A DNA stretch of 48,883 nucleotides, from the IMG/VR virus record IMGVR_UViG_3300031616_000011, positions 1 through 48,883 of that record. One strand, 5' to 3'. Positions 3,539 through 39,246 of this stretch are shown here, one piece after another (position 1 is the first letter of the stretch; each line of letters starts with the position of its first letter). The notes under the pieces were generated by a model. The model made no database searches and had not been told where the DNA came from. It saw only the letters and a program-made list of their open reading frames with translations. The stretch is from a virus. The position numbers and the translations under genes are program-made.

Positions 3539-4942
3539 TCAGGCCGAGGTGATCGCTGGGGTCTTCCCGTTCGTGGGACTGGACGGCAGCGCGGGTGCAC
3601 CACCACCGGCCGGTGCGGGCCCGCTGGACTGCTGGAGCTGGACGGACACCCAGTTCGGGTCTTCGACGAGCAGCGTCATGTCCTGCGCGACGACCGCGGC
3701 GATAGCCGAGTCGCGGGTGAAGCCGCCGGTCGCGAGGGAGACGATCGTGGAGGCCATGTTCTGCTGGATCTCAACAGCATCCTTCGCGTCCTCGCGCAGG
3801 AACGGGATGTCCCGCTTGTCGATGACGAGTTGCGCACCCTGCGGTGGCGGGACGAGCGTCGCCAGCGAGGCGGACACATTGCGCCACAGCGTGTTGAGCG
3901 TGCCTTCGGAGAAGAGCCGGCGGGCTTGGCCGAAGTTGCCGGCGTTCAGGCTGCTGCCGGCGAGGCCCTCGGACAGTCCGACGATCACCGGGTGCACGCC
4001 GGCGGCGGCGGCGATCCGGGTCTCCCCGGCGCCCTGGGTCACCTTGAAATCAAGCTGTTTCAGGTCGGCTCCGACGACGGTCGCGTCTGCTCCGCCGCCC
4101 AGGTACAGGGTCTTGTAGGCGTTCTGGGCGCCCTTGTGCGCGAGGTCCATCGTCTTCTGGAACGCCTCGAACTTCTCCTGCTTCATGTCCTTGAAGGACA
4201 CGATCGTCTGGAGGGTGGCGCCGTTCTCGAAGAACGCCAGCTTGTGGATCGTCGCCGCGGTATCCGCCTGGATCTCCCGGATGACCGGGGTCAGCCAGGA
4301 CATGCCCCGGTAGTGCGCGATCGGGTCCGGCACGGGAGCGAAGTGCGATACCTCGTCCGGGAGGAGGAAGATCGGTGGCCGGTCGGACATCCACCCGCCG
4401 GGGAAGTACCCGTAGCCGAGCAGTTCGGCGTCGAGGTCGTCGGGGAGGACCGACGGATCGTCGTGGGAGCCCATGACGATCGTCACCCAGTCCGGGCGCA
4501 TCCGGCGCAGGTGCCCGTTGCGGACGGTGAAGAACGCGTTACCGGCGAGGTCGGCGTCCTGCAAGTTCCGGGTCAGCAGGTCGCCGGTGGTGCCGTTCGG
4601 CCACGGGGTCTCGAGCAGGCTCAGGGACTGGTCGCCGAACAGGTCGCCCGGGCGGCCGTTGCGGATCCGCTGGTACTGGAACCGGCCGTCGGAGAACACG
4701 CCGAGGCGGGCGCGCATGCACGCGAAGATGATGCCGTTGCGCTTGTAGGCGCCCTGAACCATCCCGATGAAGTTGGACTCGATGCGTTCGGCCTGCGCGC
4801 CGGCCTGCCCGGGCAGTCCCGTGTACGTCGTCCCGCCGAAGCTGAAGCTGAAGTCGAGCGGGTCAAAGCCTGCGTAGTCGGCGCCGTCATAGCGTTGGGT
4901 CGTAGTGCCGGACCGGCGAAACAGCGACTGCAGGAGGTTCAC
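3539..4942 (-). CDS. Portal protein (HK97-type portal family)
   Basis: 467 aa between terL and the protease. Length, position and conserved central region (HYRGMSWLTPVIREI, AFFENGATL) are typical of siphovirus portals. Confidence 0.92.
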   Translation of the reverse strand: MNLLQSLFRRSGTTTQRYDGADYAGFDPLDFSFSFGGTTYTGLPGQAGAQAERIESNFIGMVQGAYKRNGIIFACMRARLGVFSDGRFQYQRIRNGRPGDLFGDQSLSLLETPWPNGTTGDLLTRNLQDADLAGNAFFTVRNGHLRRMRPDWVTIVMGSHDDPSVLPDDLDAELLGYGYFPGGWMSDRPPIFLLPDEVSHFAPVPDPIAHYRGMSWLTPVIREIQADTAATIHKLAFFENGATLQTIVSFKDMKQEKFEAFQKTMDLAHKGAQNAYKTLYLGGGADATVVGADLKQLDFKVTQGAGETRIAAAAGVHPVIVGLSEGLAGSSLNAGNFGQARRLFSEGTLNTLWRNVSASLATLVPPPQGAQLVIDKRDIPFLREDAKDAVEIQQNMASTIVSLATGGFTRDSAIAAVVAQDMTLLVEDPNWVSVQLQQSSGPAPAGGGAPALPSSPTNGKTPAITSA

Positions 4943-5098
4943 CCAGTGCCTCCTCGACGTCGGTCAGCAGCAGGAACGAGGCGGCGGTGATGATCCCGGC
5001 GGTGATGAGACCGCCGGCGAGGCCTTGCGCGACCCACATGCCGGCGACGACCAGGGCGCAGCCGAGGACGTAGCCGAGCAGGGCGCGCCGGCGGCGGG

Positions 5099-6685
5099 TC
5101 AGGCGAATACGGCCCACGGCTCGTTGTCCTCCTCCTCGAGGGCTCCGTCCTCGATGGCCTGCCCGCGGGCGGCCTCGGCGAGGAGTCCAGCAACGAGAGC
5201 GTCGATGTGGCCCTTGTCCCGTTTCGGGATGACCCGCAGGTAGTGGTGTGTCGCCGACGGGTCCTCTTCGGGGCGGGGTGCGCGTTTCCGGCCGCGGGCG
5301 ATCGCCGCCTGCATCGCGTGCGCGCGGAGGGTTTCGTCGCCGTCGTGGGTCAGGTCCCTGGCCAGGACCGTTTGGAAGCGGACGATGGCGTCGTCCATGC
5401 GTTTCTCGACGTTCGTGGGGAACTCGACGATCCGGTCCGGCCAGCGTGCCGCCCAGACGTCGAAGTACTCCTGCCACCGGTAGGGGTCGCCGAAGAAGTA
5501 CCGGACGTCGTAGGCGTCGAACGCGTCCGTCAGGGTCTGGTCGACCTCGGTGCGGGGGACCTTGTGGTCCGGATACTCGGCAGGGTTCCAGGTTTTCAGG
5601 TGAAACCAGCGGCCGTCGCCGACCCGGGACGCGACCAGGGATGTGCAGTCCTGGGAGCGGGACCCGTCGAAGCCGATCGCGATCATGTCGCCGGGCGCGA
5701 GGTCACGGTCGCGGACGAGCGCGTCCCAGCGGGTGGCGTCGACCGCGTCGCTGACGCCGACGACGATGAGGTTGAAGAAGTAGCGGAGGGCGTCGGGCCA
5801 GGTCGGGCAGACACCCGGGTCATGAGCGTCGGTCAGGACCCGTTCGCGGTCGACCCACCAGCTGTCGCCGTAGACGATTTCAAGGAGGGCGAGACAGTCC
5901 TCGTCGTCGTGCTCGTCCGGCTGCCGGGGCGGCGGCCGGTAGTCGACGACCACATCGGTGGCCTTGTGCTCGTGGGTGCGCTGCGCGACCGACTTCTGCG
6001 ACGGGTCGTACGCGTTCGTCGTCTCCAGCCAGCGGCCGGACATGCCGCCGATGTTCCGCTTCATCGTGCTGGCCAGCAGGACACCGCCGTTGGACTCGAC
6101 GAACAGGTGGGTCTCGTCGAACACGGCGAAGGTGAGGCGGGCACCGAGGCGGGCCTTGCCGGACGACGTCCGAGGTTCGATCTTCCCGCCGGAGGGCAGG
6201 TTGATGTCCTCGACGCCGATGTCGACACCGGGGATGTCGGCGACGGGGCCGCGGCGGGCCATCTCGTACACGCACAGCCACGTGTTGTCGGTCTGTTCCT
6301 CGGAGGTGGCGACGATCTGGATCCACGGCGTCGGGTGAGCGATGCCGAGGGGTTCGCCGTCGTCGTCCCAGCCGTCGAACCGGACCGGCCCGAACGCTTC
6401 GGCGAGGCAGATCGCGGCGGCGAACGGGCCCTTGCCCCACTTCTGTGGGCGCATCAGCAGGCCGCCGCGGTTGTGGAATGCGGCCGAGGGCCGGTCGGGG
6501 AGCCGGCGGGCGTGCGGCTTGAGCCGGTAGAACCGGAACAGGAACAGCCACATCTCGTCGGTGAGCTTGTACGGCTCGCCCTGGTGGTTGCCGTCCGGGA
6601 TGACGCAGTTCTCTTCGATCCACGCCCCGACGGCGTAGCCCAAAGTGGGATATTCGCCCTCGACCTCGGGGCCGCGCCAGGGCAT
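5099..6685 (-). CDS. terL: Terminase large subunit
   Basis: 528 aa from ATG 6685 (MPWRGPEVEGEYPTLGY). The ATPase region includes VFDETHLF and the nuclease region includes IAIGFDGSRSQDCTSL. The track N-terminus up to 7144 is an Arg/Pro shadow overlapping terS. Confidence 0.92.
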   Translation of the reverse strand: MPWRGPEVEGEYPTLGYAVGAWIEENCVIPDGNHQGEPYKLTDEMWLFLFRFYRLKPHARRLPDRPSAAFHNRGGLLMRPQKWGKGPFAAAICLAEAFGPVRFDGWDDDGEPLGIAHPTPWIQIVATSEEQTDNTWLCVYEMARRGPVADIPGVDIGVEDINLPSGGKIEPRTSSGKARLGARLTFAVFDETHLFVESNGGVLLASTMKRNIGGMSGRWLETTNAYDPSQKSVAQRTHEHKATDVVVDYRPPPRQPDEHDDEDCLALLEIVYGDSWWVDRERVLTDAHDPGVCPTWPDALRYFFNLIVVGVSDAVDATRWDALVRDRDLAPGDMIAIGFDGSRSQDCTSLVASRVGDGRWFHLKTWNPAEYPDHKVPRTEVDQTLTDAFDAYDVRYFFGDPYRWQEYFDVWAARWPDRIVEFPTNVEKRMDDAIVRFQTVLARDLTHDGDETLRAHAMQAAIARGRKRAPRPEEDPSATHHYLRVIPKRDKGHIDALVAGLLAEAARGQAIEDGALEEEDNEPWAVFA

Positions 6686-7092: not shown

Positions 7093-7146
7093 CGACGTCA
7101 CCCACCTCACGCTGAGTAGCTTCACGCAGAGTGGTGATGTCCACAT

Positions 7147-7360
7147 TGGACGGACGTAACGCTACGTGACGTGACTACGCTCCGTCAAGATCCACTTTTG
7201 TGGAATCCGTACATGGCGCGAGCCTCGTGGCCCGGGGTCCTGGCGCCGCGTTGATCTTGCGTCGCCGCCCCACCCCCCTACCCTGCGTGACGGCCACCGC
7301 TTAACGCTGCGTAATCATGAAATGATCTCACTCTTCGTACATCACTCTGTGTCACGCCTC
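7147..7360. promoter_or_regulatory. Lower-GC non-coding region between HNH and terS; candidate cos / terminase recognition region
   Basis: 214 bp without a credible ORF. It contains TAACGCT(A/G)CGT(G/A)A at 7157 and 7302, a related CTGCGTGAC at 7283 and a C-run at 7268-7281. The HNH-terS-terL order is typical of cos phages. Confidence 0.4.
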
Positions 7361-7696
7361 TCAGGCCACGCGATCCTGCTTCGCTCCGTTGCACGCACGG
7401 CACAGCACCGACAGGGGGCCTGCCTCGCTACCGCCAGCACCCACACCCACGACATGATCAGCCGTCAGGTCAGTAGCAGGGTGCTCGGCACGCTGCCACC
7501 CAGGGCACACATCCCCACGCTCAGCCCGCCACGCCCGCACCACAGCAGCCCGCCGCCGCTCCTCCACATACGACGCCCGCGGCCGGCGGGTGCGCTTGTC
7601 CTGCAACACCCAGCCACGACAGGCCGGGCAGCGGGTCTGGTCACTCAGCATGCGGCAGGGCTTGCCCGGACGGCCGAGGCAGGGGCGTAGAGCCAT
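7361..7696 (-). CDS. HNH endonuclease (packaging-associated)
   Basis: 111 aa with CxxC pairs (CPAC, CRAC) and an HNH core (DLTADHVV .. LCRACNGAKQD). Adjacent to the terminase genes. Confidence 0.85.
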   Translation of the reverse strand: MALRPCLGRPGKPCRMLSDQTRCPACRGWVLQDKRTRRPRASYVEERRRAAVVRAWRAERGDVCPGWQRAEHPATDLTADHVVGVGAGGSEAGPLSVLCRACNGAKQDRVA

Positions 7697-7707
7697 GGGC
7701 CATCACC

Positions 7708-7872
7708 TCAGGCGAAGCACAGCACGAGCACCAGGGCGGCGAGCGTGAGTACGGATGCGACGGCGACCGCGCCGCATCCACCTTTTCCCCGGCCGCCAGG
7801 ACGAGACCCGGCAGGACCACGCGGACCACGGCCGGCGGGACCGGACGGGCCCCGCTTGCCGAACTCGACCAT
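7708..7872 (-). CDS. Small membrane-anchored protein, 54 aa (Gly/Arg-rich N-terminus, C-terminal TM)
   Basis: Below the 60-aa track cutoff. ATG 7872 is preceded by GGAGGAG 6 nt upstream. Translation: MVEFGKRGPSGPAGRGPRGPAGSRPGGRGKGGCGAVAVASVLTLAALVLVLCFA. The stop lies 11 nt before the HNH start. Confidence 0.45.
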   Translation of the reverse strand: MVEFGKRGPSGPAGRGPRGPAGSRPGGRGKGGCGAVAVASVLTLAALVLVLCFA

Positions 7873-7913
7873 GGACACTCCTCCGAGCTGAAGTCAGCTG
7901 ACCATGGAGAGGT

Positions 7914-8192
7914 TCAGCGGAGCCAGGTCTGGACGTCGGCGTCCGGCTGCACGACCACCGGGACCGTCACCGAATGGGTAAGGGCCTTGTCGTCGGCGCC
8001 CGGGTCGAACTGGACACGACCAGCGGCCGACAGCGTGTACAGGCGGATCGTCAGTCGGCCGTCGGCGAAGGTCGGCCGCTCGCCGTAGGGCACGACACGG
8101 CCGCCGTCGTTGACGCCGTTCGCCTCGAGCCAGGCGATCAGCTTGTCCCGGAACGCTTGGTCCTGCTCGATGCGGTCCTGTACGGCGTCCAT
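7914..8192 (-). CDS. Hypothetical protein, 92 aa
   Basis: ATG 8192 with GGAGG 7 nt upstream (MDAVQDRIEQDQAFRDKLIAWLEANG). The track N-terminus to 8543 is a shadow frame. Confidence 0.6.
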   Translation of the reverse strand: MDAVQDRIEQDQAFRDKLIAWLEANGVNDGGRVVPYGERPTFADGRLTIRLYTLSAAGRVQFDPGADDKALTHSVTVPVVVQPDADVQTWLR

Positions 8193-8205
8193 GGGTGACC
8201 TCCGG

Positions 8206-8445
8206 TCAGGCGGCGATGGTGCGGCGGGCGCGCTCACGGGTGCGGCGCTCGGCCCGGGCCACCGCCAGCGGGGTGAGGCGTAGCTGCCGGCCGAACCGCT
8301 CGGCGACCTCAAGGTGTCCGCGCTCAACCCACTTCCAGATCGTCTCCGGGGATACGTGGGCCTTCGGGCCGAGGATCCGCCGGCGTACGTCGGTTGCCCA
8401 GTCGGCGGCGACGCGCACGTCCCACAGATCGTCGAGGTCGTCCAC
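8206..8445 (-). CDS. Small helix-turn-helix DNA-binding protein (excisionase/MerR-like), 79 aa
   Basis: GTG 8445 preceded by GGAGGAGG 6 nt upstream. HTH-like stretch SPETIWKWVERGHLEVAE. Basic C-terminus. Confidence 0.5.
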   Translation of the reverse strand: MDDLDDLWDVRVAADWATDVRRRILGPKAHVSPETIWKWVERGHLEVAERFGRQLRLTPLAVARAERRTRERARRTIAA

Positions 8446-8561
8446 GGAAGACCTCCTCCGCAGACAGCAAACAACCGCCAACACCTGTTTTTGGGCAGGG
8501 TCGACGGCTGCTTCATCCTGACGCAGAAAAGTGATCTTTGCAAGCGACGAACCGGCAGACG

Positions 8562-10145
8562 CTACCCGACGGGTGGGACGTTTTCCGCCAGCCATGGCCA
8601 GGTCGCGTTCCGACCGGCCTCGATCAGGGGCACCATCTTGAACGTCGCGTCGGTCAGGCCGCCCATCTCGACCCGGTTCGTCTTCCCGGCGTCGACCGCC
8701 CCGACCTTGTAGCCGCCGAGGTTGAAGCCGTACAGCGCCACGTTGCCCGGGACCGCGGTAGACACGTCGCCGGTCATGGTCTGCATGTCCGAGATCAGGA
8801 ACACCCGGTCGTGGCCCGACCACGTGCGCCGCAGCGAGCCCGCGATGTCGGTGCCGTGGCCGACCTCACCGGTGCGCTTCACGAACCGGTCGACTTCCTT
8901 CAGCACGCTGGCGCCCTTCGGCACGTCGTGGCGGAACACGCCGTCGGCGAAGCCGTGGACGTCCGCACCGCAGCGAGCGCCGAGCACCACGCCGAACACG
9001 GCCGCGGCCTTCGCCGGGGTCATCTTCGACTTCGCCGAGTAGGCCATGTTGGTCATGGACGCCGAGGTGTCGATGAGGACGAGGGTGCGGCCGTCGAGCC
9101 GCGGCACGTTGCCGAGCGCGGCGTTGAGCGCCTTGTCCAGGGCGTGGCCCCACCGCAGCGACGGAGCTGCCTCGTACGCCGCGAGGAACCGGTACGGGAA
9201 CTGGCGGGACTTCGCCACCTGCGCGGGGTCGGCCAGGCGGGCGGCCACCGTGTCCGCGACGTCGTCGGAGACGCCCGCCTCGTCGAAGTTCCGGAGGTTC
9301 CGCAGCAGCGCCATGTAGCCCATCGACGGGATCAGCGCAGCCCACAGCTTCGCCTTGTCGACCGTCGGGCCCGCCAGGGACAGCGCGTCCTCCCACGTCA
9401 TGCCCGCACGCTTGAGCGCGTCGGCGTTCAGCAGAGACTCCGGCTCCTCCTTGACCACGCCGCGGAGCCACGCGTTGAAGCTCACCATCGACAGTCCGGA
9501 CGGGATCGTGTCGCCGCGGCCGTGCCGCCGGTCCAGCGCGTAGCTGAACAGTTCGCCCTGCCACGGTTCCTTCGGTGACGGGTGGACGAGGTCGAGGACA
9601 TCGCCGAATCGGTAGCCCTTGCTCACCGTGTCGTACCGCAGGAGCGAATACTCCGTGTAGAGCCGCACCGCCGCGTCCGCGACACCGCGCTTGACCGGCT
9701 TCGGGATCGCCCGGCCGTAGCGGGACGTCCAGTAGGCGAGGGCCTCGCCGGGCTCGTCGGCGCGCTGGAGCACGCTGGCCACGATCGGACGGGCGCCGGG
9801 CACCTTCGCCGCAACCATCGCCTTCGCAGCCTCCAGCGCGCCGACCAGGGAGGCGGAACGCATGTTGCCGTCGCCGCGCAGCCAGCCGAGGAAACCGGCC
9901 GTCCAGTGCGGGTCGGCGACCGCGGTCTGCGCGACCAGCGACCGGTATCGGGCGTCGCGGTCGGTCGCGCCCTCATAGAACGTCTGCTCCCCGACCATGT
10001 TCGCGACCGCGAGGAGGAACAGCTCCGACTTGACCGTGCGGGCGTAGCCGGGCGCGCCCTCGTACGTTGAGCCGGTCGGCTGCGCTGCGGTCTCGATCGG
10101 ACCCTTGGCCACCACGCGGTGGTCGACGACGTTGAACTTGGTCAT
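8562..10145 (-). CDS. rsr: Ro60 orthologue (Rsr): TROVE domain plus vWA domain
   Basis: 527 aa from ATG 10145 (GAGGAG upstream). TROVE-like motifs FYEGATDRDARYRSLV and MGYMALLRNLRNF. The C-terminal vWA domain has MIDAS residues (LIDTSASM, GHGTD, ISDMQ). Y-RNA-like modules lie immediately upstream. Confidence 0.85.
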   Translation of the reverse strand: MTKFNVVDHRVVAKGPIETAAQPTGSTYEGAPGYARTVKSELFLLAVANMVGEQTFYEGATDRDARYRSLVAQTAVADPHWTAGFLGWLRGDGNMRSASLVGALEAAKAMVAAKVPGARPIVASVLQRADEPGEALAYWTSRYGRAIPKPVKRGVADAAVRLYTEYSLLRYDTVSKGYRFGDVLDLVHPSPKEPWQGELFSYALDRRHGRGDTIPSGLSMVSFNAWLRGVVKEEPESLLNADALKRAGMTWEDALSLAGPTVDKAKLWAALIPSMGYMALLRNLRNFDEAGVSDDVADTVAARLADPAQVAKSRQFPYRFLAAYEAAPSLRWGHALDKALNAALGNVPRLDGRTLVLIDTSASMTNMAYSAKSKMTPAKAAAVFGVVLGARCGADVHGFADGVFRHDVPKGASVLKEVDRFVKRTGEVGHGTDIAGSLRRTWSGHDRVFLISDMQTMTGDVSTAVPGNVALYGFNLGGYKVGAVDAGKTNRVEMGGLTDATFKMVPLIEAGRNATWPWLAENVPPVG

Positions 10146-10147
10146 GC

Positions 10148-10184
10148 GAAACGGGCTCCTCACGTGACGTGGGGAGCCCGTTTC
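10148..10184 (-). promoter_or_regulatory. 12-bp hairpin between the Y-RNA array and rsr; it sequesters the rsr Shine-Dalgarno
   Basis: Minus strand reads GAAACGGGCUCC-13 nt loop-GGAGCCCGUUUC followed by GCAUG. The GGAG of the 3' arm is the rsr SD. It could also act as a weak terminator or 3'-end former for the RNA array. Confidence 0.5.
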
Positions 10185-10190
10185 CAGAAA

Positions 10191-10337
10191 GCTGTGCCCG
10201 AGGTCAAGGCGGATCCGGTGACGTTTAGCGCTCTACCACTGAGCTACATCCCAGGTCTGACCCGGGACGACGGGATTCGAACCCGCGACCTCTCTATCCC
10301 AAATAGAAGTAACCGAGTCCTGCGCACCGGGCACAGC
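10191..10337 (-). ncRNA. yrlA: Y RNA, YrlA-like, with a complete circularly permuted tRNA-like domain (module 1)
   Basis: Terminal stem GCUGUGCCCG/CGGGCACAGC. Second helix GGACUCGGUUAC/GUCACCGGAUCC (10 of 12 pairs). T arm GCGGG-UUCGAAU-CCCGU. A 9-bp acceptor-like stem CGUCCCGGG/CCUGGGAUG is closed by a UCAGA loop. D arm GCUC-AGUGGUA-GAGC. Ends about 45 nt upstream of rsr on the same strand. Confidence 0.75.
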
Positions 10338-10351
10338 ATCTGAAGTTGTGA

Positions 10352-10481
10352 CTCCCCGAGATCAATTACAGGCTGACGGGATGCCACACGCCACGTGGCT
10401 GGCGAGCCGCGACCTTGCGGGAGCGGCTGCCTGGATTCGAACCAGATCCCAGAAGGAACCGTCGACCAGCGCACCGGGGAG
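10352..10481 (-). ncRNA. Y-RNA-like module 2 (T arm retained, divergent effector domain)
   Basis: Terminal stem CUCCCCG/CGGGGAG with the same flanking CGGUGCGC and UUGAUCUCGG strands as module 1. Inner helix GACGG/CCGUC. T arm UCUGG-UUCGAAU-CCAGG. Hairpin AGCCGC..CC-GCAA-GG..GCGGCU. Hairpin CGCCA-GCCACG-UGGCG. Confidence 0.6.
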
Positions 10482-10499
10482 GTGCATATCAAGTTGAGC

Positions 10500-10573
10500 C
10501 CCACCGAGATCAAAGCGCCTGCGGAACCGGTCAAAATCGCATTTGAAGTAACCGCGGGCTGCGCACCGATGGG
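10500..10573 (-). ncRNA. Y-RNA-like module 3 (minimal, no tRNA-like elements)
   Basis: Terminal stem CCCAUCG/CGGUGGG (one G-U) with the same CGGUGCGC .. CGGUUACUUC and UUGAUCUCGG strands. Only a short internal hairpin, CGGUU/GACCG. Confidence 0.5.
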
Positions 10574-10603
10574 AACGATCCTGACGCTAACCCACCCTGG
10601 ACC

Positions 10604-10744
10604 TCAGGAGCAAACACGTTTCGTGCCAACCGCCTTCTCCGGGTCCCAACCCGCATCGGCGAGCAGCTTCAGGGCTTCGCCGGAGACCCGGTAGCCCTTC
10701 CGTTCGCAAAGGCGATGGAAGCCGTACCCGTCGCGGAGCTCCAC
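10604..10744 (-). CDS. Possible small protein, 46 aa
   Basis: Below the track cutoff. GTG 10744 lies 2 nt after the upstream stop. High GC3. Translation: VELRDGYGFHRLCERKGYRVSGEALKLLADAGWDPEKAVGTKRVCS. The region could instead be the promoter leader for the RNA array. Confidence 0.35.
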   Translation of the reverse strand: MELRDGYGFHRLCERKGYRVSGEALKLLADAGWDPEKAVGTKRVCS

Positions 10745-10746
10745 CG

Positions 10747-10998
10747 TCAGCCCCCGATCCACAGCTCGACCGCACCGTGCGCATGGATGGCCGCGATCAG
10801 GTCGGCAGCGCCATCCACACCACAGTCGGCGAGCCCTTCGAGATACGGCACCATCGCTGGGCCCACCTCGACCTTGTTGCCGTGGATCGAGCCGTCATGG
10901 CCCCACAGGCGCGGGGCGATCTTCTTCTTCAGGTCGAAGTCGAGCGTGCGCTCCGGGTCAGGCTTCGGTACCGGGCACCAGTAGAGGCTGCTGCTCAC
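10747..10998 (-). CDS. Hypothetical protein, 83 aa
   Basis: GTG 10998 in a GTGA overlap with the upstream stop. The track N-terminus is an Arg/Gly shadow. Confidence 0.55.
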   Translation of the reverse strand: MSSSLYWCPVPKPDPERTLDFDLKKKIAPRLWGHDGSIHGNKVEVGPAMVPYLEGLADCGVDGAADLIAAIHAHGAVELWIGG

Positions 10999-11246
10999 GT
11001 GCTGGCCGCCTTTCGGGGATCGCCGGTGCTCCGGAGCTTCGCCAACGCCACCTGAGCCTCGGCGATGAACCGCTCCATCGCCGCGACCGCCTCGGCGTGC
11101 GGTGCACCGGCGCGCCACTCACCGGCGATGTCCCAGGAGTCGCACTGGTGGGGCAGGTAGACACGCCAGCCCGTGACATCCTCCGCGTAGCCGTCAGCGC
11201 CCCAGATCGGTTCGGGCTCGACGGTGAAGCCGAACGGCTTGCTCAT
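10995..11246 (-). CDS. Hypothetical protein, 83 aa
   Basis: ATG 11246 in an ATGA overlap with the upstream gene (MSKPFGFTVEPEPIWGADGY). Confidence 0.6.
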   Translation of the reverse strand: MSKPFGFTVEPEPIWGADGYAEDVTGWRVYLPHQCDSWDIAGEWRAGAPHAEAVAAMERFIAEAQVALAKLRSTGDPRKAAST

Positions 11247-11563
11247 GCCACCTGTCCTCTCTCGCAGCCACACTCACACGGGTCGGGGTGCGCCATGGTC
11301 ATCAGCTCTCGGCAGTCGTAGAGCAGCGTGTCGGCGCCGTCCGTCAGCCGCCACACGGTTTCGGGCAGCCACTCATCGAGGACGACGGCCAGGCCGACCA
11401 CCGTGACCTCACGGCCGCTAGGCGAGAATCCGAAGGTCGTCCACGGCGGCTCCATGGTCAGCACCGCGCGGTAGGCGAGGTGGCCGCAGCGGAACCGCTC
11501 GACCTTCCGCCGGTCACGCCGCATCGCGTCCATGGCGCCAAGCACCTCGCGGGCCGTCACCAT
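11243..11563 (-). CDS. Hypothetical protein, 106 aa, C-terminal HPDPCEC tail
   Basis: ATG 11563 overlaps the upstream stop. It ends in HPDPCECGCERGQVA, encoded by a 21-nt string repeated at 12037..12057. Confidence 0.6.
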   Translation of the reverse strand: MVTAREVLGAMDAMRRDRRKVERFRCGHLAYRAVLTMEPPWTTFGFSPSGREVTVVGLAVVLDEWLPETVWRLTDGADTLLYDCRELMTMAHPDPCECGCERGQVA

Positions 11564-11997
11564 GGCGTCACCGTGTCCCACGAGATTGCGGCGTCCGACT
11601 TGAGCACCACGTGCCCGTAGTCGCGGCCGGGCAGGACGGTCGTCGCACGCGGGTACGTCCACCGCGTCAGCACGTCGACCCGGGTGCGATGGCTGTGCGT
11701 TTCGTCTATGAACCTAGGTTCGCGCAGCCAGCGACCCCACCAGCGTTGCCGGTACGTCGCTGCGAAGTGATCCCGCCACGTCGCGAACCGGGGCACCTCG
11801 AACTCCACAACGTCGTCGAGATGCGTCGGCGGGAGTTGCTCAGCGAACAGGCCTACCTCCAGCGCCGCCACGATATCCCCGGTCAGTACGTCGGCGTACT
11901 CCTCGACGCGCAGAGACTCCGCCACCTGCCGGCCGATCCGCTGCTGTATGGCGTAGCGCAGCCGCTGGACTGTGACCTGATTGAACAGCGCGCTCAC
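11557..11997 (-). CDS. Hypothetical protein, 146 aa
   Basis: GTG 11997 in a GTGA overlap. Balanced composition (Trp/Arg-rich C-terminal half). Confidence 0.7.
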   Translation of the reverse strand: MSALFNQVTVQRLRYAIQQRIGRQVAESLRVEEYADVLTGDIVAALEVGLFAEQLPPTHLDDVVEFEVPRFATWRDHFAATYRQRWWGRWLREPRFIDETHSHRTRVDVLTRWTYPRATTVLPGRDYGHVVLKSDAAISWDTVTPW

Positions 11998-12686
11998 GCC
12001 ACCCGTCCCCTCTCGGTGATCTCTTCATAGCTCTTGCACTCACACGGGTCGGGGTGCTCGACCTCGACCTCTGTCTTGCACTCTCCGCACCGCCACGCTG
12101 GGTCGCCGCTGTTCCGCCGGAGCGCTGCCGTACCACAACTCGGGCACGCCAGCGGCGAGTACTCCGGGCGCCGGCTGACCGCCAGCACGCTGCGGCAGGT
12201 GTACAGCGTCATCGTGAGCTCGCGGGCGAACTCGTCGATTGCCGGGTGGACGTCCAACGCCCACGGGAGACGTCTGGACAGCCAGGACACGAGCGCATCG
12301 ACGGTCGGGTCGGGTAGCTCCTCGTCCTCGCGGATCGCTGACCAGTCGCGGGCCCAGGAGTCCAGGATCGCTGCGACCGCGACCGGGCCCTCCTGGTCGC
12401 CGCGGTAGTCCTGGACCTCCACCGTGCTGGGTCGGCCGGCGAGGTCGAGGGCGGTCGCGCGCAGCGGCAGCCCCGGATCCCGGTGGACGCGGCCCGGCAG
12501 CCGCTCACCCTGGCCGGGGATCAGCGCGTACGGGAGCAGGGCGTGGAGGTCGCGTAGCTCCCACAGGGCCTGAGCGAGGCGGTTGCGGTCCCGGGTGCAC
12601 ACCGGGGGCTGGTTGGGCTCGACCTGCTGGCACACGATGCACAAGAGCGCACCGGAGGGGCCACGGGGACGCTGGTCGTCAGGCAT
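11994..12686 (-). CDS. Zinc-ribbon protein, 230 aa, C-terminal HPDPCEC tail
   Basis: ATG 12686 after GGGTGGAG. N-terminal CIVCQQ..C and C-terminal CPSCG-x14-CGEC zinc ribbon. Ends in HPDPCECKSYEEITERGRVA. Confidence 0.65.
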   Translation of the reverse strand: MPDDQRPRGPSGALLCIVCQQVEPNQPPVCTRDRNRLAQALWELRDLHALLPYALIPGQGERLPGRVHRDPGLPLRATALDLAGRPSTVEVQDYRGDQEGPVAVAAILDSWARDWSAIREDEELPDPTVDALVSWLSRRLPWALDVHPAIDEFARELTMTLYTCRSVLAVSRRPEYSPLACPSCGTAALRRNSGDPAWRCGECKTEVEVEHPDPCECKSYEEITERGRVA

Positions 12687-12891
12687 GCCACTCCACCCAT
12701 GTCGGATTCTGCGGGCCGACCGGCGCCCCAGGATGAGGGGTGCGCGGCGAGCCGTGCGGCCCGGAGTGCGCCGCTGGCAGGCCACACCACGCCTTGGTCC
12801 AACTGATCACCGAGCAGTGGCCGTCGGCGACGTGCCGGTCGTGCGGCTCGGCGGGGCCGGTCGGGGAGCCACGAGGACGGTCGTCAGCCAC
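12679..12891 (-). CDS. Possible small protein, 70 aa
   Basis: GTG start and stop both sit in 8-nt overlaps with neighbours, which fits the local coupling pattern. Pro/His-rich composition makes the call weak. Confidence 0.35.
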   Translation of the reverse strand: MADDRPRGSPTGPAEPHDRHVADGHCSVISWTKAWCGLPAAHSGPHGSPRTPHPGAPVGPQNPTWVEWHA

Positions 12892-13168
12892 GGGTCACCC
12901 ACTTCCGCGCCTCGCGATCCCAGCGGGCGTTCACACCCAGGACGTAGCCGCGCGCCTCCGTGTTGTGGCCGTATGCAACGGCAGCGGGGAGTATCCAGCC
13001 GCCCTGGATGAGCATCAGCGGGAACGAGGGCTCGCCGAACGTGAGCCCGACGGCGACCTGTACCGCGAACGCCACGCAAGCCACGATGGTCCACCGGACG
13101 GCCAGCTGTCGGTGCCGACGGACCGGCAGTAACTGAAGGGTCGGGTCGTCGTCAGGCAAGGCAGTCAC
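12884..13168 (-). CDS. Membrane protein, 94 aa (two predicted TM segments)
   Basis: GTG 13168 in a GTGA overlap. Hydrophobic stretches WTIVACVAFAVQVAVGLTF and LMLIQGGWILPAAVAY. Confidence 0.55.
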   Translation of the reverse strand: MTALPDDDPTLQLLPVRRHRQLAVRWTIVACVAFAVQVAVGLTFGEPSFPLMLIQGGWILPAAVAYGHNTEARGYVLGVNARWDREARKWVTRG

Positions 13169-17093: not shown

Positions 17094-17499
17094 CTGGTGC
17101 CTCCGGGAGGTGGACGTCCTCGACCGGCCTATATCCACCATCGTCAGTGAGCAGGACCCACCGTCGGGTCCAAATACGCACCGGAGTAGCGGCCGGGCTC
17201 TTCGACTGCGCGACCAACCACCCCGCGTTGTAGGCCGTCGTGCGGTACTTCTCGACAAACTCGTGGTGGGCGCGGCACAGCAACAGCAGGTTCTCGATGC
17301 CGTTCGTGTCCCGGCGTTTGGAGCCGCCCATCTGGCGGGGCCGGCGGTGATGCACGTGCCAGTCGTCGCCGCGGTCGCCGTGCAGCTCCTCGTTGCCGAT
17401 CTCGCACCGGCCCTGCCCGCGGGCGACGAGCGCCTCCACGGTGAGGGCGTCCGGGCCCGTCGCGCGGCGGACCGGTGAGCGATGGTTCCGGATCGTCAT
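17083..17499 (-). CDS. HNH endonuclease (second copy, early region)
   Basis: 138 aa with the core HVHHRRPRQMGG .. NLLLLCRAHHEFV. Confidence 0.85.
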   Translation of the reverse strand: MTIRNHRSPVRRATGPDALTVEALVARGQGRCEIGNEELHGDRGDDWHVHHRRPRQMGGSKRRDTNGIENLLLLCRAHHEFVEKYRTTAYNAGWLVAQSKSPAATPVRIWTRRWVLLTDDGGYRPVEDVHLPEAPDGR

Positions 17500-18236
17500 G
17501 CCGCACCTGCCATGATCAGTCGGCCGACCAGTTCCGAGACCTGCGGCACGACGGCGTTCCCGAGCGCCTTCACTCGGGCCGGCTCCAGTTCGTCGGGAAT
17601 CCCATCAGCCACTCGACCGCTTCGGCGGGTGGCCTCCATGAGTCCGTCGACCGGATGTAGCCACTGACCCGCTCCTCCGTTGAGGGCTTCCAGCGCCCCC
17701 CCCGGCCGATTCCCCAGCCGCGGCGTCCCATTGCCGCCAGCGGTGTAGGCCACCACGAACAGCCGCTCACGCACGTGTGGTGCACCCACGGCGCACGCGG
17801 ATAGCACCGACCACTCCGCATCGAACCCGAGCGTGGCCAGCTCACCGAGGATCCAGCCGAAAGCGTCCCCGCCGAAAAGGTCAAGGAGAGCTGGCGGGTT
17901 CTCCACGACGACGACCTCCGGTTCCACTCCGCGAACCACGTCGAAGAGCCAGGGCCATCCCCAGCGCGGATCCCCGTCGCCGAGACGACGGCCCGCACGG
18001 CTGGCGGGCTGGCATGGTGGGCCGCCGGCGACAAGGCGAACAGTTGGCCTTGAATCGCCTCGCCACCAGGCAACGGCGCTTCGGACGTCGTCATGTCGCA
18101 GCACCTCCGGCCAGTGTTTCGCCAGCACGCGCCGGCAGAACGGATCGATCTCCACCTGGCCGACGACGGTCATGCCGGCGCGCTCCAGCCCGAGCTCCAG
18201 TCCGCCGATCCCGGAAAACAGCGACAGCACGTTCAC
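17496..18236 (-). CDS. dcm: DNA (cytosine-5)-methyltransferase
   Basis: 246 aa from GTG 18236 (AGGAGA upstream, GTGA overlap). Motif I LFSGIGG, motif IV GGPPCQ, ENP, and motif X GNAVVPQ. Confidence 0.9.
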   Translation of the reverse strand: MNVLSLFSGIGGLELGLERAGMTVVGQVEIDPFCRRVLAKHWPEVLRHDDVRSAVAWWRGDSRPTVRLVAGGPPCQPASRAGRRLGDGDPRWGWPWLFDVVRGVEPEVVVVENPPALLDLFGGDAFGWILGELATLGFDAEWSVLSACAVGAPHVRERLFVVAYTAGGNGTPRLGNRPGGALEALNGGAGQWLHPVDGLMEATRRSGRVADGIPDELEPARVKALGNAVVPQVSELVGRLIMAGAA

Positions 18237-18595
18237 CGCGGTCTCCTGTACTGCTCGGTAGGGGCGTCCGGAGGACGGGACCTCGCCAGCTGCTCCGGGG
18301 TCACCTGTGCGGTCGGCTCCTCGGCGAGCCGGCGTGCCTGCTCGACTCCCTGCCTCAGGTAGCGGTCCAGGCCGGCGTGCCGCACCGCCTGGGCGAGCGC
18401 GTACCGCAGGCGGGCGGCCTCGACCGCGTGTGCGGACCTCTCCTCGGCGAGCTTTTTCAGAGCCTCGGCCAGGGCGTCGCGGAGTCCCTCGATCTGCGCG
18501 TCCCGGACGTCGAACTGCGCACCGAGGAACGTGACCTCGTCGACGGAGCGGTGGACCCCCGGCGTGCGGCGGCGGGACAGCCATACCCGGATCAC
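18233..18595 (-). CDS. Coiled-coil hypothetical protein, 120 aa
   Basis: GTG start in a GTGA overlap. Heptad-like Ala/Leu/Glu/Arg composition. Confidence 0.6.
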   Translation of the reverse strand: MIRVWLSRRRTPGVHRSVDEVTFLGAQFDVRDAQIEGLRDALAEALKKLAEERSAHAVEAARLRYALAQAVRHAGLDRYLRQGVEQARRLAEEPTAQVTPEQLARSRPPDAPTEQYRRPR

Positions 18596-26618: not shown

Positions 26619-27467
26619 ATGAATAAATTGATTCAGCTGCACCTCGTGGCGCTACGCCAACAGAGCATGTCCGAACGCAGCCGCGAGGACGCCGCCGCCG
26701 TCCTCGAACGTATGCACGCGGCGCTGAAGCTCGGCATCGCCAAGACCAGCAGAACCGAGTTGGAGAGTTTCCTCGCCGGCCCCGCAGACTCGAAACGGGC
26801 CTGGTCCGACGGGACCCGCGCAACGTACTTCGGTCACGCGGCCCGCTTCTACGCCTGGGCGACCGACCCCGACGTCGACCTGATCAGCCACAACCCGATG
26901 GAGAACATGCCCCGGCCGCAGACACGCAGGGGGAAACCCCGTCCGCTGTCACCCCGCGAGCTGGACATCGTGCTCACCCGGTCGGCGCAGCCGTTCCGGC
27001 TGTGCGCGTTGATCGCGTTCGAGACCGGCTTGAGGTGCTGCGAGATCGCCGGGCTGCGGAAGTGCGACGTCGGGGAGGACGACGTCTACATCCGCAAGGC
27101 GAAGGGCGGCGGCAGCGAGACAGTCCCCGGGCGGCCGGCGGCGCTGATCGACGCCATCAGCGACCTGCCGGACGGGCTGCTCGTCGAGGCGGTCGGCGGG
27201 ATCGCGGACGCCCGGTGGATCTCGATCCGGTCCGCGGTCTACTTCCGGCGCACGCTCGGCCTGCCCGGGGTGAGCCTGCACCGGATGCGGCACACCTACG
27301 CGAAACGGCTCCGGGACGCCGGGCACGACCTGTTCGTCCTGCAACGGCAGCTCCGCCACAAGAGCGTCCAATCGACGCAGATCTACGCGGGGGCTACGGA
27401 TGAGGAGTGTCGCCAGGCCGTACGGGGCCTGACGACACCCTCATACCTGTCTCAGATCGCCAGCTAG
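26619..27467 (+). CDS. int: Tyrosine integrase/recombinase
   Basis: 282 aa with catalytic pattern GLRCCEIAGLR .. HRMRHTYA .. LRHKSVQSTQIYAG (R, HxxR, H, Y). Confidence 0.92.
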   Translation: MNKLIQLHLVALRQQSMSERSREDAAAVLERMHAALKLGIAKTSRTELESFLAGPADSKRAWSDGTRATYFGHAARFYAWATDPDVDLISHNPMENMPRPQTRRGKPRPLSPRELDIVLTRSAQPFRLCALIAFETGLRCCEIAGLRKCDVGEDDVYIRKAKGGGSETVPGRPAALIDAISDLPDGLLVEAVGGIADARWISIRSAVYFRRTLGLPGVSLHRMRHTYAKRLRDAGHDLFVLQRQLRHKSVQSTQIYAGATDEECRQAVRGLTTPSYLSQIAS

Positions 27468-37219: not shown

Positions 37220-39246
37220 TTCACGATCGACTTGGCGTGGATCTGGAGGTGGCCGGTGCGGCTCTGCTCGGCGAGCCAGGTGGCGAAGAACCCGTCCAGG
37301 CCGCCGGTCGGCCCGCTGTAGATCAGGTACGCCGGGCCGCTCGCCGACGACGGGGAGTTCCGGGAGACCTGGAAGCCGTAGTTGTTGCCGACGATCTGCG
37401 CGAGTCCCATAGCTGCTGTCTGGCTGATCCCCCGTAGCGGGATGAACGCTTCACCGCCGGTCTGCGGCTCACCGAACAGCACGGTGCCCGGGTTGCGGGG
37501 CGGGACGATCAGGCCCTCGGCAGCCCGCCGGATACCGCCGTGGGCGTAGGCGCCCTTGAGCGGCACCCCGCCGATCGGCTGGCCGTTCGGACCGCTCTCG
37601 GTGACCCTGACGTTGACTTTGACGTTGACCGTCTTGTCCTTGATCTGGCTCAGCGAGCCGACCAGGGCGTCAACGGCGGCCTTGTTGAAGCCCAACTGCG
37701 CCAGCAGGCCCCGGAGCTGGCTGATCTGCCGGCCGAACGCCGCGTTCGCCGCGTCGGTCGCCTGCTGGGTGCCGCCGCCGGCCTCGATCGCCTTTTCGCG
37801 CTGCTGCTCCAGCTTGCCGATCATGTCGGTGACGACGCCGATGTTGGTCCGGCCGGCGTCGGAGTTGATGTCCAGGCTGTGGGCGTGGCCGGAGACGGCC
37901 TTCGCCATGTCGGCGAATCCTGCCGCTACCGCAACGTTGGCGTTCTCCAACCCGAGCGCCTGGTTGATGGCCGAAGCCATCTGGTCGTTGAGGTTCTTCA
38001 ACGCCTGCGCGGCGTTGTTGCCCTTGTCCGCGACGTCACCGAGGCTCTGCGAGACGCCGGGCAGGACGCTGCCGAACGCGGCCGGTTTCCGGTCGTCCCA
38101 GATGCCGAACCAGTTCGAGATCGGCTTCAGGATCGGGTCGAACTCCGCGACCTTCGCGACCACGTCGGTGACGCCGTGGCCGAACTGGTCGAGGGCGTCA
38201 TAGGCCTTGCCGAACCAGCCGATCATCGTCCCGGTGGCCTGGATCGTGGCGCCGACCACGTGGAGGATCTGCGAGAGCGCCTCGGCCTCGCCCTTGGCGC
38301 CGGAGCCGATGCTGTTCAACGCCTCCTCGATCGAATGGCCGAGGTCGGCGATGGAGGGTCCGAGCGCCTTCAGAATGGGCGCCCCGTCGTGGATCAGGTT
38401 GGCGATGCCGGTGCCGATCTCGGCGACCGCCGAAGCCACCCCGGCGCCGATGCCCTCGGTGTACTGCGACAGTTCCTCGAGGGTCTTCTGGATCGGTAGG
38501 CCGTTGAGGGCATCGCCGAGCATCTGGACGTCTTTGAGCGCCGGTTCGATGAACGACGCGGACCCGCGCGACCAGGCGGCCTCAACCTTGTCCAGCTCGT
38601 TGTTGAACGCTGTCGAGATCCTCGGGGCCTGCTGGACGGCGCCGGCGATGCCCGCGGCGATACCGGCCGCGCCGACGGCCGCGATGGCCGCACCCGCCGC
38701 GGCAGCCACTACCGGGATGGCCGCGAGCGCGATGCCTCCGATCGCGGCCGGGCTGGTCAGACCACCGGAGAACAGGGTCCCGATGGACGGGGCGGTCTTT
38801 TCCGCCGACGTACCCAACTGGCCGATGTCGCCGGTGAGGTTGCCGATCTCCTTGCGCATCTTCGACAGCCCGGCCAACTCGGACGAGTCGGACCGGAACT
38901 TCTTCATCAGCGCCGGGTCGCCGGTCCGGTCGAACTCGGCGGCCAGGTTCTTCAGGGAGGCTTTCAGCTCGTCGGCACGGCTGACGAACTTTCCCGTCGC
39001 GTCGGTGTTCGCCGTGGTCTTCTTACTCAGGTCCTCGACGGAGGTTGAGGTCCTCTTCGCCTCGGCACCCATCACGCCGATCGCTGCGCCGGCCTTGGCC
39101 GCATCGGCGGGGATCTTGTTGATGTCCCGGTCGAGGGCGGAGACCTTCCGGTCCAATCCGTCGACGCTGCGCTCTGCCGCTGCGGCTTCGGCCTTGAACT
39201 GCGAGGCCTTGAGCTCGAGGGCAACGGATGCCTTGCGGTCGGCCAC
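37216..39246 (-). CDS. Tape measure protein
   Basis: 676 aa, Ala/Gly-rich and coiled, with a hydrophobic central stretch (AIGGIALAAIPVVAAAAGAAIAAVGAAGIAAGIAG). Follows the chaperone pair. Confidence 0.9.
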   Translation of the reverse strand: MADRKASVALELKASQFKAEAAAAERSVDGLDRKVSALDRDINKIPADAAKAGAAIGVMGAEAKRTSTSVEDLSKKTTANTDATGKFVSRADELKASLKNLAAEFDRTGDPALMKKFRSDSSELAGLSKMRKEIGNLTGDIGQLGTSAEKTAPSIGTLFSGGLTSPAAIGGIALAAIPVVAAAAGAAIAAVGAAGIAAGIAGAVQQAPRISTAFNNELDKVEAAWSRGSASFIEPALKDVQMLGDALNGLPIQKTLEELSQYTEGIGAGVASAVAEIGTGIANLIHDGAPILKALGPSIADLGHSIEEALNSIGSGAKGEAEALSQILHVVGATIQATGTMIGWFGKAYDALDQFGHGVTDVVAKVAEFDPILKPISNWFGIWDDRKPAAFGSVLPGVSQSLGDVADKGNNAAQALKNLNDQMASAINQALGLENANVAVAAGFADMAKAVSGHAHSLDINSDAGRTNIGVVTDMIGKLEQQREKAIEAGGGTQQATDAANAAFGRQISQLRGLLAQLGFNKAAVDALVGSLSQIKDKTVNVKVNVRVTESGPNGQPIGGVPLKGAYAHGGIRRAAEGLIVPPRNPGTVLFGEPQTGGEAFIPLRGISQTAAMGLAQIVGNNYGFQVSRNSPSSASGPAYLIYSGPTGGLDGFFATWLAEQSRTGHLQIHAKSIVN

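Follow-up and report, generated by a model that had tools for sequence, protein, structure and literature searches.

The locus considered here raises the question of what is encoded by some 430 nt of DNA lying directly upstream of a Ro60-like gene (rsr) in a viral genome, IMG/VR record IMGVR_UViG_3300031616_000011, of which positions 1 to 48,883 were analysed (48,883 nt in all, hereafter the window). Phage Ro60/Y RNA systems are known and remain poorly understood; to our knowledge, the sole one studied biochemically is that of Thermus phage phiLo, in 2025. A first-pass annotation of this DNA had read the locus as a phage Ro60/Rsr gene accompanied by three Y RNA modules with differing internal domains, probably made as one precursor, and that core reading is supported by the computational tests described below. 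We consider it very probable that rsr and the upstream region form a mobile cassette of a temperate actinobacterial phage, encoding a Ro60/Rsr ribonucleoprotein (RNP) made up of a ring protein and three paralogous Y RNAs of the actinobacterial YrlA/YrlB class. If so, the window is a clean and compact example of a temperate-phage Ro60/Y RNA system.

The Rsr protein

The rsr gene (8562..10145, minus strand) was assigned from profile and structure-sequence matches as a Ro60/Rsr homologue of 527 aa, with a TROVE ring and a C-terminal vWA-like domain containing DxSxS. The start ATG at 10145 is conserved in homologous loci and gives the 527 aa product; the program-made list of open reading frames (ORFs) extends the frame to a GTG at 10163. 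The TROVE-like nature of the product, proposed in the first-pass annotation, was borne out by Pfam TROVE (PF05731; 69.4 bits against a cut-off of 23, E 4.6e-19, residues 255-333, MGYMALLRNLRNF included), by a match to PHROG 850 'RNA-binding protein' (E 1.8e-48, residues 20-521) and by a full-length alignment with the Ro60 protein of phiLo (9KOP; E 2e-28, residues 24-523 against 20-498, end to end), and Deinococcus radiodurans Rsr (2NVO) was matched over 258-448 (E 5e-6). A vWA domain with an intact metal-ion-dependent adhesion site had also been called. In the 9KOP alignment LIDTSASM stands opposite LVDVSGSM (DTSAS opposite DVSGS) and ISDMQ opposite ITDEQ, as that call would have it, but Pfam VWA_2 gave 18.6 bits on the ORF, under its cut-off of 27, and the assignment is weaker than was implied. 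Judged from these matches, the rsr product is a complete but divergent Ro60 homologue, and not an equivalog of the curated bacterial Rsr set.

Three Y RNA modules upstream of rsr

Three stem-closed modules occupy the 430 nt upstream of rsr, on the same (minus) strand and 47-430 nt from the gene, a location that agrees, as it does in the 160 related loci described below, with the YrlA-class criterion of lying no more than 4 kb from a Ro60 orthologue on its strand (Chen et al. 2014). The shared strands lie at 10567/10513, 10475/10365 and 10328/10207, and the units, which together span 10574 to 10192, each start with C(C/U)CGGUGCGC...CGGUU(A/C)CUUC and end with UUGA(U/C)CUCGG(G/U)G. In RNAfold every module forms its own stem-closed fold, and pairing of its two ends gives one and the same bulged helix in all three (5' CCCGGUGCG(N)AGG..GGUUACUUC, 3' UUGAYCUCGGG); as far as sequence and predicted pairing go, this bulged terminal helix corresponds to the one through which known Y RNAs bind Ro60. 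The region had been described as lacking a convincing ORF, and this agrees with our comparison with the annotation of ENA metagenome contig ERZ27251740 k141_2180493 (48,894 bp), of which the window is nearly all: the contig's gene caller left ~600 nt upstream of the TROVE gene empty, and the ORFs listed in 10190..10600 (e.g. 10244..10534) overlap the RNA structures.

For comparison, 80 viral (IMG/VR) and 80 bacterial-genome loci encoding relatives at 44-71% protein identity were collected (individual loci are cited by L numbers). Alignment A2 comprises 56 non-redundant rsr-proximal modules from these loci, with the window excluded, and the covariance model R1 was built from it, so that the window was left out of the model too. 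R1 matched module C, the rsr-proximal unit, with 119 bits (E 2e-26), module A, the distal unit, with 48.2 bits (E 9e-10, via a local end) and module B, the middle unit, with 42.3 bits (E 2e-8), all on the minus strand, the next best match in the 48.9-kb window scoring 16 bits. With their shared strands located, their separate folds and an R1 match to each, the three stem-closed modules of the earlier reading stand. The 16-bit local match (E 0.03; 38916..38945, plus strand) is a short hairpin, GGUCGCCGGUCCG..CGAACUCGGCGGCC, that resembles part of the Ro-binding helix and is probably due to chance.

Module C (10192..10335, minus strand) is a canonical YrlA-type tRNA-like Y RNA by R1, Rfam YrlA, fold and covariation. 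Within two nested helices it carries a V arm (a small hairpin), a T arm (GCGGGUUCGAAUCCCGU; GCGGG-UUCGAAU-CCCGU), a 7+3 bp acceptor-like stem and a D arm (GCUCAGUGGUAGAGC; GCUC-AGUGGUA-GAGC), and it is a circularly permuted tRNA mimic (V, T, acceptor, D), the arrangement that defines YrlA. At gathering thresholds no Rfam family passed anywhere in the window, and YrlA, a model type that the earlier reading had named as a check, surfaced only in a permissive search, in which the model (RF02553) spanned module C over positions 1-114 of 114 (E 1.7e-6), though under its gathering score, and gave no match to modules A and B. Module B (10350..10482, minus strand) is YrlB-like by R1 and by comparison with its subtype elsewhere; it has the same Ro-binding helices, a T arm (CUGGUUCGAAUCCAG) that is caught by the mascRNA/tRNA-like Rfam model (17.9 bits), and two further, non-canonical hairpins. 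Module A (10498..10574, minus strand), supported by R1 and covariation, is a minimal Y RNA of ~75 nt that has the same two helices and a small hairpin and is devoid of tRNA-like arms. A resemblance to metazoan Y RNAs had also been noted: it is limited to a short helix motif (GGUGCG/UUGAYC in the window, GGUCCGA/UUGAC in metazoans), but the Rfam metazoan Y_RNA family has no match in 9900..10900 at E values up to 10.

Because the T and D arms are tRNA-like, the Rfam tRNA model reaches 21 bits at 10262..10329 and ARAGORN calls a 'tRNA-Arg' in the equivalent module of Gordonia phage VanLee, these sequences might be taken for relics of tRNA genes, or of an attachment site carried by a tRNA, unrelated to the TROVE gene. 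We regard such an origin as extremely improbable: the permuted arms are enclosed by a Ro-type helix exactly as in YrlA, the modules accompany rsr, on its strand, amid flanking genes that differ completely, ARAGORN detects no tRNA gene in the window, and the Rfam tRNA score (21.1 bits) is under the cut-off of 29. Module C was accordingly rejected as a tRNA. Also rejected, on inspection of A2, was an alternative cloverleaf with the 5' Ro strand as its acceptor (Rfam tRNA 21 bits), a pairing that is not maintained because the acceptor 3' strand varies across homologues and GGUGCG is invariant.

Conservation of the RNA structures

RNAalifold predicted 34 pairs in A2, with compensatory changes in 22 of them. 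On that structure, 97.0% of the alignment's cells were paired, against 80.8% in column shuffles and 39-47% when partners were slid by 1-3 columns, and the covariation score was 0.442 against 0.140 in shuffles; not one of 500 shuffles reached any of these measures. Double changes occur in seven of seven pairs of the acceptor stem and in six of seven pairs of the second helix. Helix 1 is 96% paired, with 5 compensatory pairs, helix 2 is 94% paired, with 6, and the T, acceptor and D helices are 97-100% paired; all five module C helices are supported in 56 homologues. Covariation of the proposed helices, which the first-pass annotation had named as a check, is therefore strong by RNAalifold and shuffling alike.

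The outer helices were also examined by their pairing specificity. Across 234 distinct modules the closing stem is more stable with the module's own partner strand (-15.1 kcal/mol) than with that of another module (-9.4 kcal/mol), as is the second stem (-13.4 against -9.0 kcal/mol), and within the window, too, the best-pairing 3' strand for each of the three 5' closing strands is that of the same module. Among 48 short (A-type) modules the closing stem covaries, for example from C-G to A-U at columns 7/92; for this type MAFFT with RNAalifold recovered the closing stem only, the second stem being misaligned by MAFFT, and the self-versus-cross duplex test was used instead. L001/L002, L023 and L136 also have the window's B subtype, and across these loci the T arm, the acceptor-like stem and the third hairpin all show compensatory changes.

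These results bear on the possibility that only the proximal YrlA-type module functions and that A and B are decaying duplicates without a role. Such a history would fit the lower R1 scores of A and B (48 and 42 bits, against 119 for C), the loss of the canonical D-loop sequence from B and the lack of tRNA-like arms in A, yet it accounts poorly for the recurrence of A-type and B-type modules at the same positions in many loci (AC, BC, BBC and ABC by regex class), for the module-specific complementarity that their closing and second stems retain, and for compensatory changes in all three of the three internal hairpins of the window's B subtype (L001, L023, L136). A Y RNA whose only tRNA-like element is a T arm can moreover be a true partner of the protein, as YrlB of Mycobacterium smegmatis, an RNA of this kind, is bound by Rsr in vivo (PMC4201824). 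Decay of A and B is in our judgement quite improbable, and we take all three modules as Y RNAs in what follows.

Organization and predicted expression of the array

Upstream of module A lies a candidate promoter (10584..10613, minus strand), proposed on comparative grounds, with a -35-like TTGCTC (10613..10608), an 18-nt spacer and a -10-like TAGCGT (10589..10584); from the position of TAGCGT, transcription is predicted to start close to the 5' terminus of module A. A TANNNT hexamer (TACCGT, TACGGT, TACAGT and others) typically precedes the GGUGCG of the first module by 20-24 nt, and was present in the -66..-6 window of 73 of 124 distinct arrays compared with 12 of 124 in a control window. A TTG-type -35 element at 18-19 nt was seen in a minority of arrays only.

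The spacers between modules are likewise conserved in sequence. Inter-module spacing has a median of 18 nt, and (C)ACAACUUCAGA occurs in about half of 122 distinct spacers. In the window the spacers read GUCACAACUUCAGAUGC and CUCAACUUGAUAUGCA: that between B and C (10336..10349, minus strand) has the ACAACUUCAGA motif, which is kept in L001/L002/L023/L074, and that between A and B (10483..10497, minus strand) has the variant CAACUUGAUAUGCA. From this conservation, seen in the spacers of about 60 related loci, the motif is a candidate endonuclease processing signal. Mycobacterial RNase E cleaves just 5' of cytidines (PMC10641625), a preference compatible with cleavage between AA and CUU in the spacers, which we offer only as a suggestion. 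The motif, as (C)ACAACUUCAGA(U/G)GC, is also found ahead of the first module in L018, L021, L028, L034, L035 and L038.

Between module C and the rsr start codon is a hairpin (10150..10186, minus strand), notable for its stability and conservation, whose 3' arm holds the GAGGAG Shine-Dalgarno (SD) sequence; the UUU with which the arm terminates is 5 nt from the AUG. Its folding energy is -29.9 kcal/mol (z = -6.0), with none of 200 shuffles equally stable, and its arms covary between the window and L001/L023. A comparable hairpin of at least 6 bp is found at the same place in 102 of 126 distinct loci; across the 126, the 3' arm has an SD-like purine run in 81 loci, a U-run of at least 3 is present in 38, and in many loci the order is hairpin, then U5-6, then start codon. 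From its sequence and position the hairpin may be a leaky terminator and/or a translational mask that sequesters the SD sequence. It has the look of a terminator fused to the rsr ribosome-binding site, an arrangement that was not found described in the literature on Rsr/Y RNA loci that we examined. The layout that emerges for the cassettes of actinobacteria and actinophages is thus a -10 element, one to seven Y RNA modules with a conserved spacer motif, the SD hairpin and rsr.

Read in this way, the array is probably made as one precursor. Conservation of the motifs suggests that it would be transcribed from its own promoter, starting near the 5' end of module A, that cleavage in the conserved ACAACUU spacers would release the individual Y RNAs from the precursor, as with M. 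smegmatis YrlA/YrlB, and that transcription would end at the strong hairpin in which the rsr ribosome-binding site is buried. The Y RNAs would then be in excess over the rsr mRNA, and production of Rsr would require read-through as well as an opened hairpin. By analogy with D. radiodurans, Salmonella and phage phiLo, Rsr would bind the conserved helix of each Y RNA, and the phage may in this manner redirect the host's decay or quality control of structured RNA during infection or lysogeny.

Much of this organization could also be read as a regulatory leader, in which the 430-nt region acts mainly in cis, as part of the rsr mRNA, offering decoy sites for Rsr and an SD-sequestering hairpin for autoregulation rather than trans-acting small RNAs. 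The region is directly upstream of rsr on the same strand, no strong terminator separates the modules, the rsr SD sequence is within the last hairpin and the promoter-like element stands ahead of the entire array. The equivalent region of M. smegmatis, however, gives discrete Rsr-bound RNAs processed from a precursor, and the conserved spacer motifs suggest cleavage sites. The modules are, moreover, downstream of rsr in some loci and in phage Atuin, and there they cannot be a leader. A role confined mainly to the leader is to our minds very improbable; a leader function and small-RNA production can, on the other hand, coexist.

A fuller scheme builds on the small-RNA reading and is possible, if rather unlikely as a whole. 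The array would be a self-promoted polycistronic Y-RNA operon whose hairpin, as leaky terminator and ribosome-binding-site mask, sets the ratio of Y RNA to Rsr, and the three paralogues (up to seven elsewhere) would steer one phage Ro60 ring to different partners in the host, to PNPase, to RNase P/CCA enzyme and to other tRNA-binding proteins, whereby host RNA decay would be reprogrammed or a tRNA-targeting defence countered. If this were true, array size would reflect the number of host targets.

Occurrence in phages and bacteria

How unusual is an array of three? The 80 viral loci contain 178 R1 matches and the 80 genome loci 196; all 374 of 374 are on the rsr strand, and most are directly upstream of the gene. 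Viral loci have no module (4 loci), one (16), two (36), three (16), four (5), five (1) or seven (2), and genome loci have none (3), one (17), two (29), three (21) or four (10). Arrays of three or more modules, seven being the maximum, are thus present in 55 of the 160 related loci. The window's three-module array recurs in its closest relatives, L001, L002 and L074 (~70% protein identity); the array of L023 has four modules. The two largest arrays, each of seven modules by R1 with a single rsr, are L015:2025-2923 and L048:1709-2921 (IMG/VR, 106 and 111 kb), and by motif search that of L015 possibly has eight.

Cultured phages provide further cases. Three unannotated modules lie upstream of the Ro-like gene of Streptomyces phage Quantum and three, likewise unannotated, downstream of rsr in Arthrobacter phage Atuin (L165:3899-4332); phages pSt2308 and BRock each have two modules and one weak match, also unannotated, and Gordonia phages VanLee (NC_073474) and Neville have two modules each by R1. 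The novelty that the first-pass annotation implied for a three-module phage array is therefore overstated, given these phages, the 55 loci with at least three modules and published accounts of tandem Y RNAs. Since the same cassette is common in related phages and bacteria, the one described here is a new example of a known system and not a new kind of system.

None of the deposited phage records examined carries a Y RNA annotation, and our survey shows that deposited phage genomes systematically lack annotation of these RNAs or list them wrongly, as tRNA or as small coding sequences (CDSs). In VanLee the annotated tRNA-Arg(tct) (65454-65525 of the record) sits within a 107-bit YrlA-type match (L163:1702-1842) and is probably a misannotated Y RNA; ARAGORN repeats the tRNA call, and a third, short module can be made out by eye. 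The two modules of Neville (L166:1506-1878) are overlapped by the small hypothetical CDSs gp88-gp90. In the large lytic actinophages pSt2308 and BRock (Streptomyces) and Atuin (L161, L162, L165), the Ro-like gene and its modules lie in the middle of long tRNA gene clusters; the window phage is devoid of tRNA genes. Modules downstream of rsr, as in Salmonella, are found in L060, L067, L075 and L076 (~4750-5260; loci of lower GC content) as well as in Atuin.

Relation to known Ro60 systems

Chen et al. (2014, RNA 20:1715, PMC4201824) found YrlA-like RNAs beside the Ro60 genes of 254 bacteria and 22 phages. In M. smegmatis, rsr is preceded by the genes for YrlA and YrlB, two Rsr-bound RNAs that are 'processed from a single precursor'; YrlA is a substrate of RNase P and acquires a CCA tail, and YrlB includes a T arm (PMC4201824). 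The window shares with M. smegmatis an actinobacterial-type Rsr gene immediately preceded, in the same orientation, by tandem Y RNAs, and the combination of one full tRNA-like RNA (with a 7-bp acceptor-like stem) and one T-arm RNA, modules C and B matching the YrlA and YrlB classes, respectively. The M. smegmatis probe sequences also share the UUAC(C)ACUUC, ACUUC/V-arm and ACUUC/T-arm motifs with the window. The window differs in having three RNAs rather than two, the extra one being the minimal module, in being carried by a phage, and in the proximity of the YrlA type to rsr, which in M. smegmatis is distal; in addition, conservation of its 3' strand, UUGAYCUCGG, equals that of the 5' strand, whereas in M. 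smegmatis only the 5' strand is recognisable (PMC4201824).

The Ro60 structure of Thermus phage phiLo has been solved, and the protein binds two upstream Y-like RNAs and host PNPase (NAR 2025, PMC12135203; 9KOP, 9L5Y). There, too, a phage Ro60 gene has Y-RNA-like genes immediately upstream, and phiLo Ro60 is the best solved-structure match of the window protein. In contrast to the window, phiLo has two RNAs (Yrl1/Yrl2), found by a CGAA motif and with no tRNA-like domain reported; its host phylum differs from that of the window phage, and the protein similarity is distant. The D. radiodurans RYPER (Rsr/Y RNA/PNPase) and Salmonella rsr-yrlBA-rtcBA systems likewise combine a Ro60 ring with adjoining Y RNA genes, the Y RNA helix binding the ring and the variable domain tethering the effector PNPase, with YrlA as a tRNA mimic. 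Those loci are chromosomal and regulated by stress or by RtcR, the Salmonella Y RNAs are downstream of rsr, and the window has no RtcB/RtcA genes. Like the two to four metazoan Y RNAs of a species, the modules are paralogues with a common Ro-binding bulged helix and differing loops; the metazoan RNAs, however, are separate Pol III genes and are devoid of a tRNA-like domain. For Listeria phage CKA15, three highly transcribed non-coding regions, co-oriented with an Rsr-like gene and no more than 2 kb upstream of it, have been proposed as Y RNAs (mSystems 2025, PMC12282133), a proposal based on transcript abundance without a structural model, whereas the case made here is based on structure and covariation. 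In the published accounts examined (the supplementary tables of Chen et al. 2014 aside), we found no statement of a third, minimal module class, of the prevalence of arrays of three to seven modules or of the conserved layout of promoter, spacers and hairpin.

Homology with these systems suggests transcription of the array as one precursor, its processing, the binding of Rsr and the recruitment of host PNPase or tRNA enzymes. Should the module types recruit different host factors, the cassettes would offer a naturally occurring means of studying how the partners of Ro60 are specified by Y RNA loops, in bacteria and animals alike.

Several points weigh against the interpretation of the locus as a phage Ro60/Y RNA cassette, and temper our confidence in it. 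The cassette is known here from the sequence of a metagenomic contig, and PNPase and RNase P are assumed by analogy as partners of the RNP. The protein scores 28.7 bits against the equivalog cut-off of 900 of NCBIfam NF041674 ('RNA-binding protein Rsr'). Module C falls short of the Rfam YrlA gathering score (37.7 bits against 69); that score is an operational threshold, and R1, a model of actinobacterial and phage homologues, gives the same module 119 bits. The published GNCGAA(N)G motif reads GCGCAG/GCGCUG in the window, where the GNCGAA(N0-1)G position is GGUGCGCAGG in modules A and C and GGUGCGCUGG in module B; the base after GCG varies in homologues (C > A > U), so the motif appears to be there as a variant. 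Finally, simple scans (consensus promoter, terminator) called neither the candidate promoter nor the pre-rsr hairpin, and the U-tract of the hairpin is only 3 nt long in the window; the promoter having been missed by the consensus scan, its proposed function has a comparative basis.

Genomic setting

Along the minus strand, small early-type ORFs are followed by the non-coding stretch, rsr (the ORF at 8562..10145), a small ORF, an HNH gene, a small-terminase-like gene and genes for large terminase, portal, protease and major head protein. The top PHROG match of the small-terminase-like gene is labelled 'minor tail protein', and the contig gene call has Pfam Terminase_7. A tyrosine integrase (26619..27467) and a DNA methyltransferase (17496..18584) are encoded elsewhere in the window, whose GC content is ~69%. 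Gene order, integrase and GC content together point to a temperate siphophage-like genome of a high-GC actinobacterium, and the phage context given in the first-pass annotation is confirmed by the HNH, small-terminase-like, large terminase, portal, protease and capsid genes downstream on the same strand and by the integrase.

A megablast search of the locus against 50,697 phage records gave zero matches, so there is no close cultured relative among them, and relatives had to be sought at the protein level by tblastn. When ten neighbouring window proteins were compared by tblastn with all 160 loci, almost nothing matched and synteny gave no clue to host or lineage. In a comparison of window positions 7146..13145 with the 160 loci, the genes flanking rsr and its Y RNAs were found to differ among loci, with only L023 sharing the HNH gene and one upstream ORF. 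As the flanking genes are not conserved, rsr and its Y RNAs appear to travel as a unit, and from these comparisons the cassette behaves as a mobile one. Some of the 'genome' loci are identical to IMG/VR prophage predictions (L007=L099, L008=L101, L010=L112 and L080=L146).

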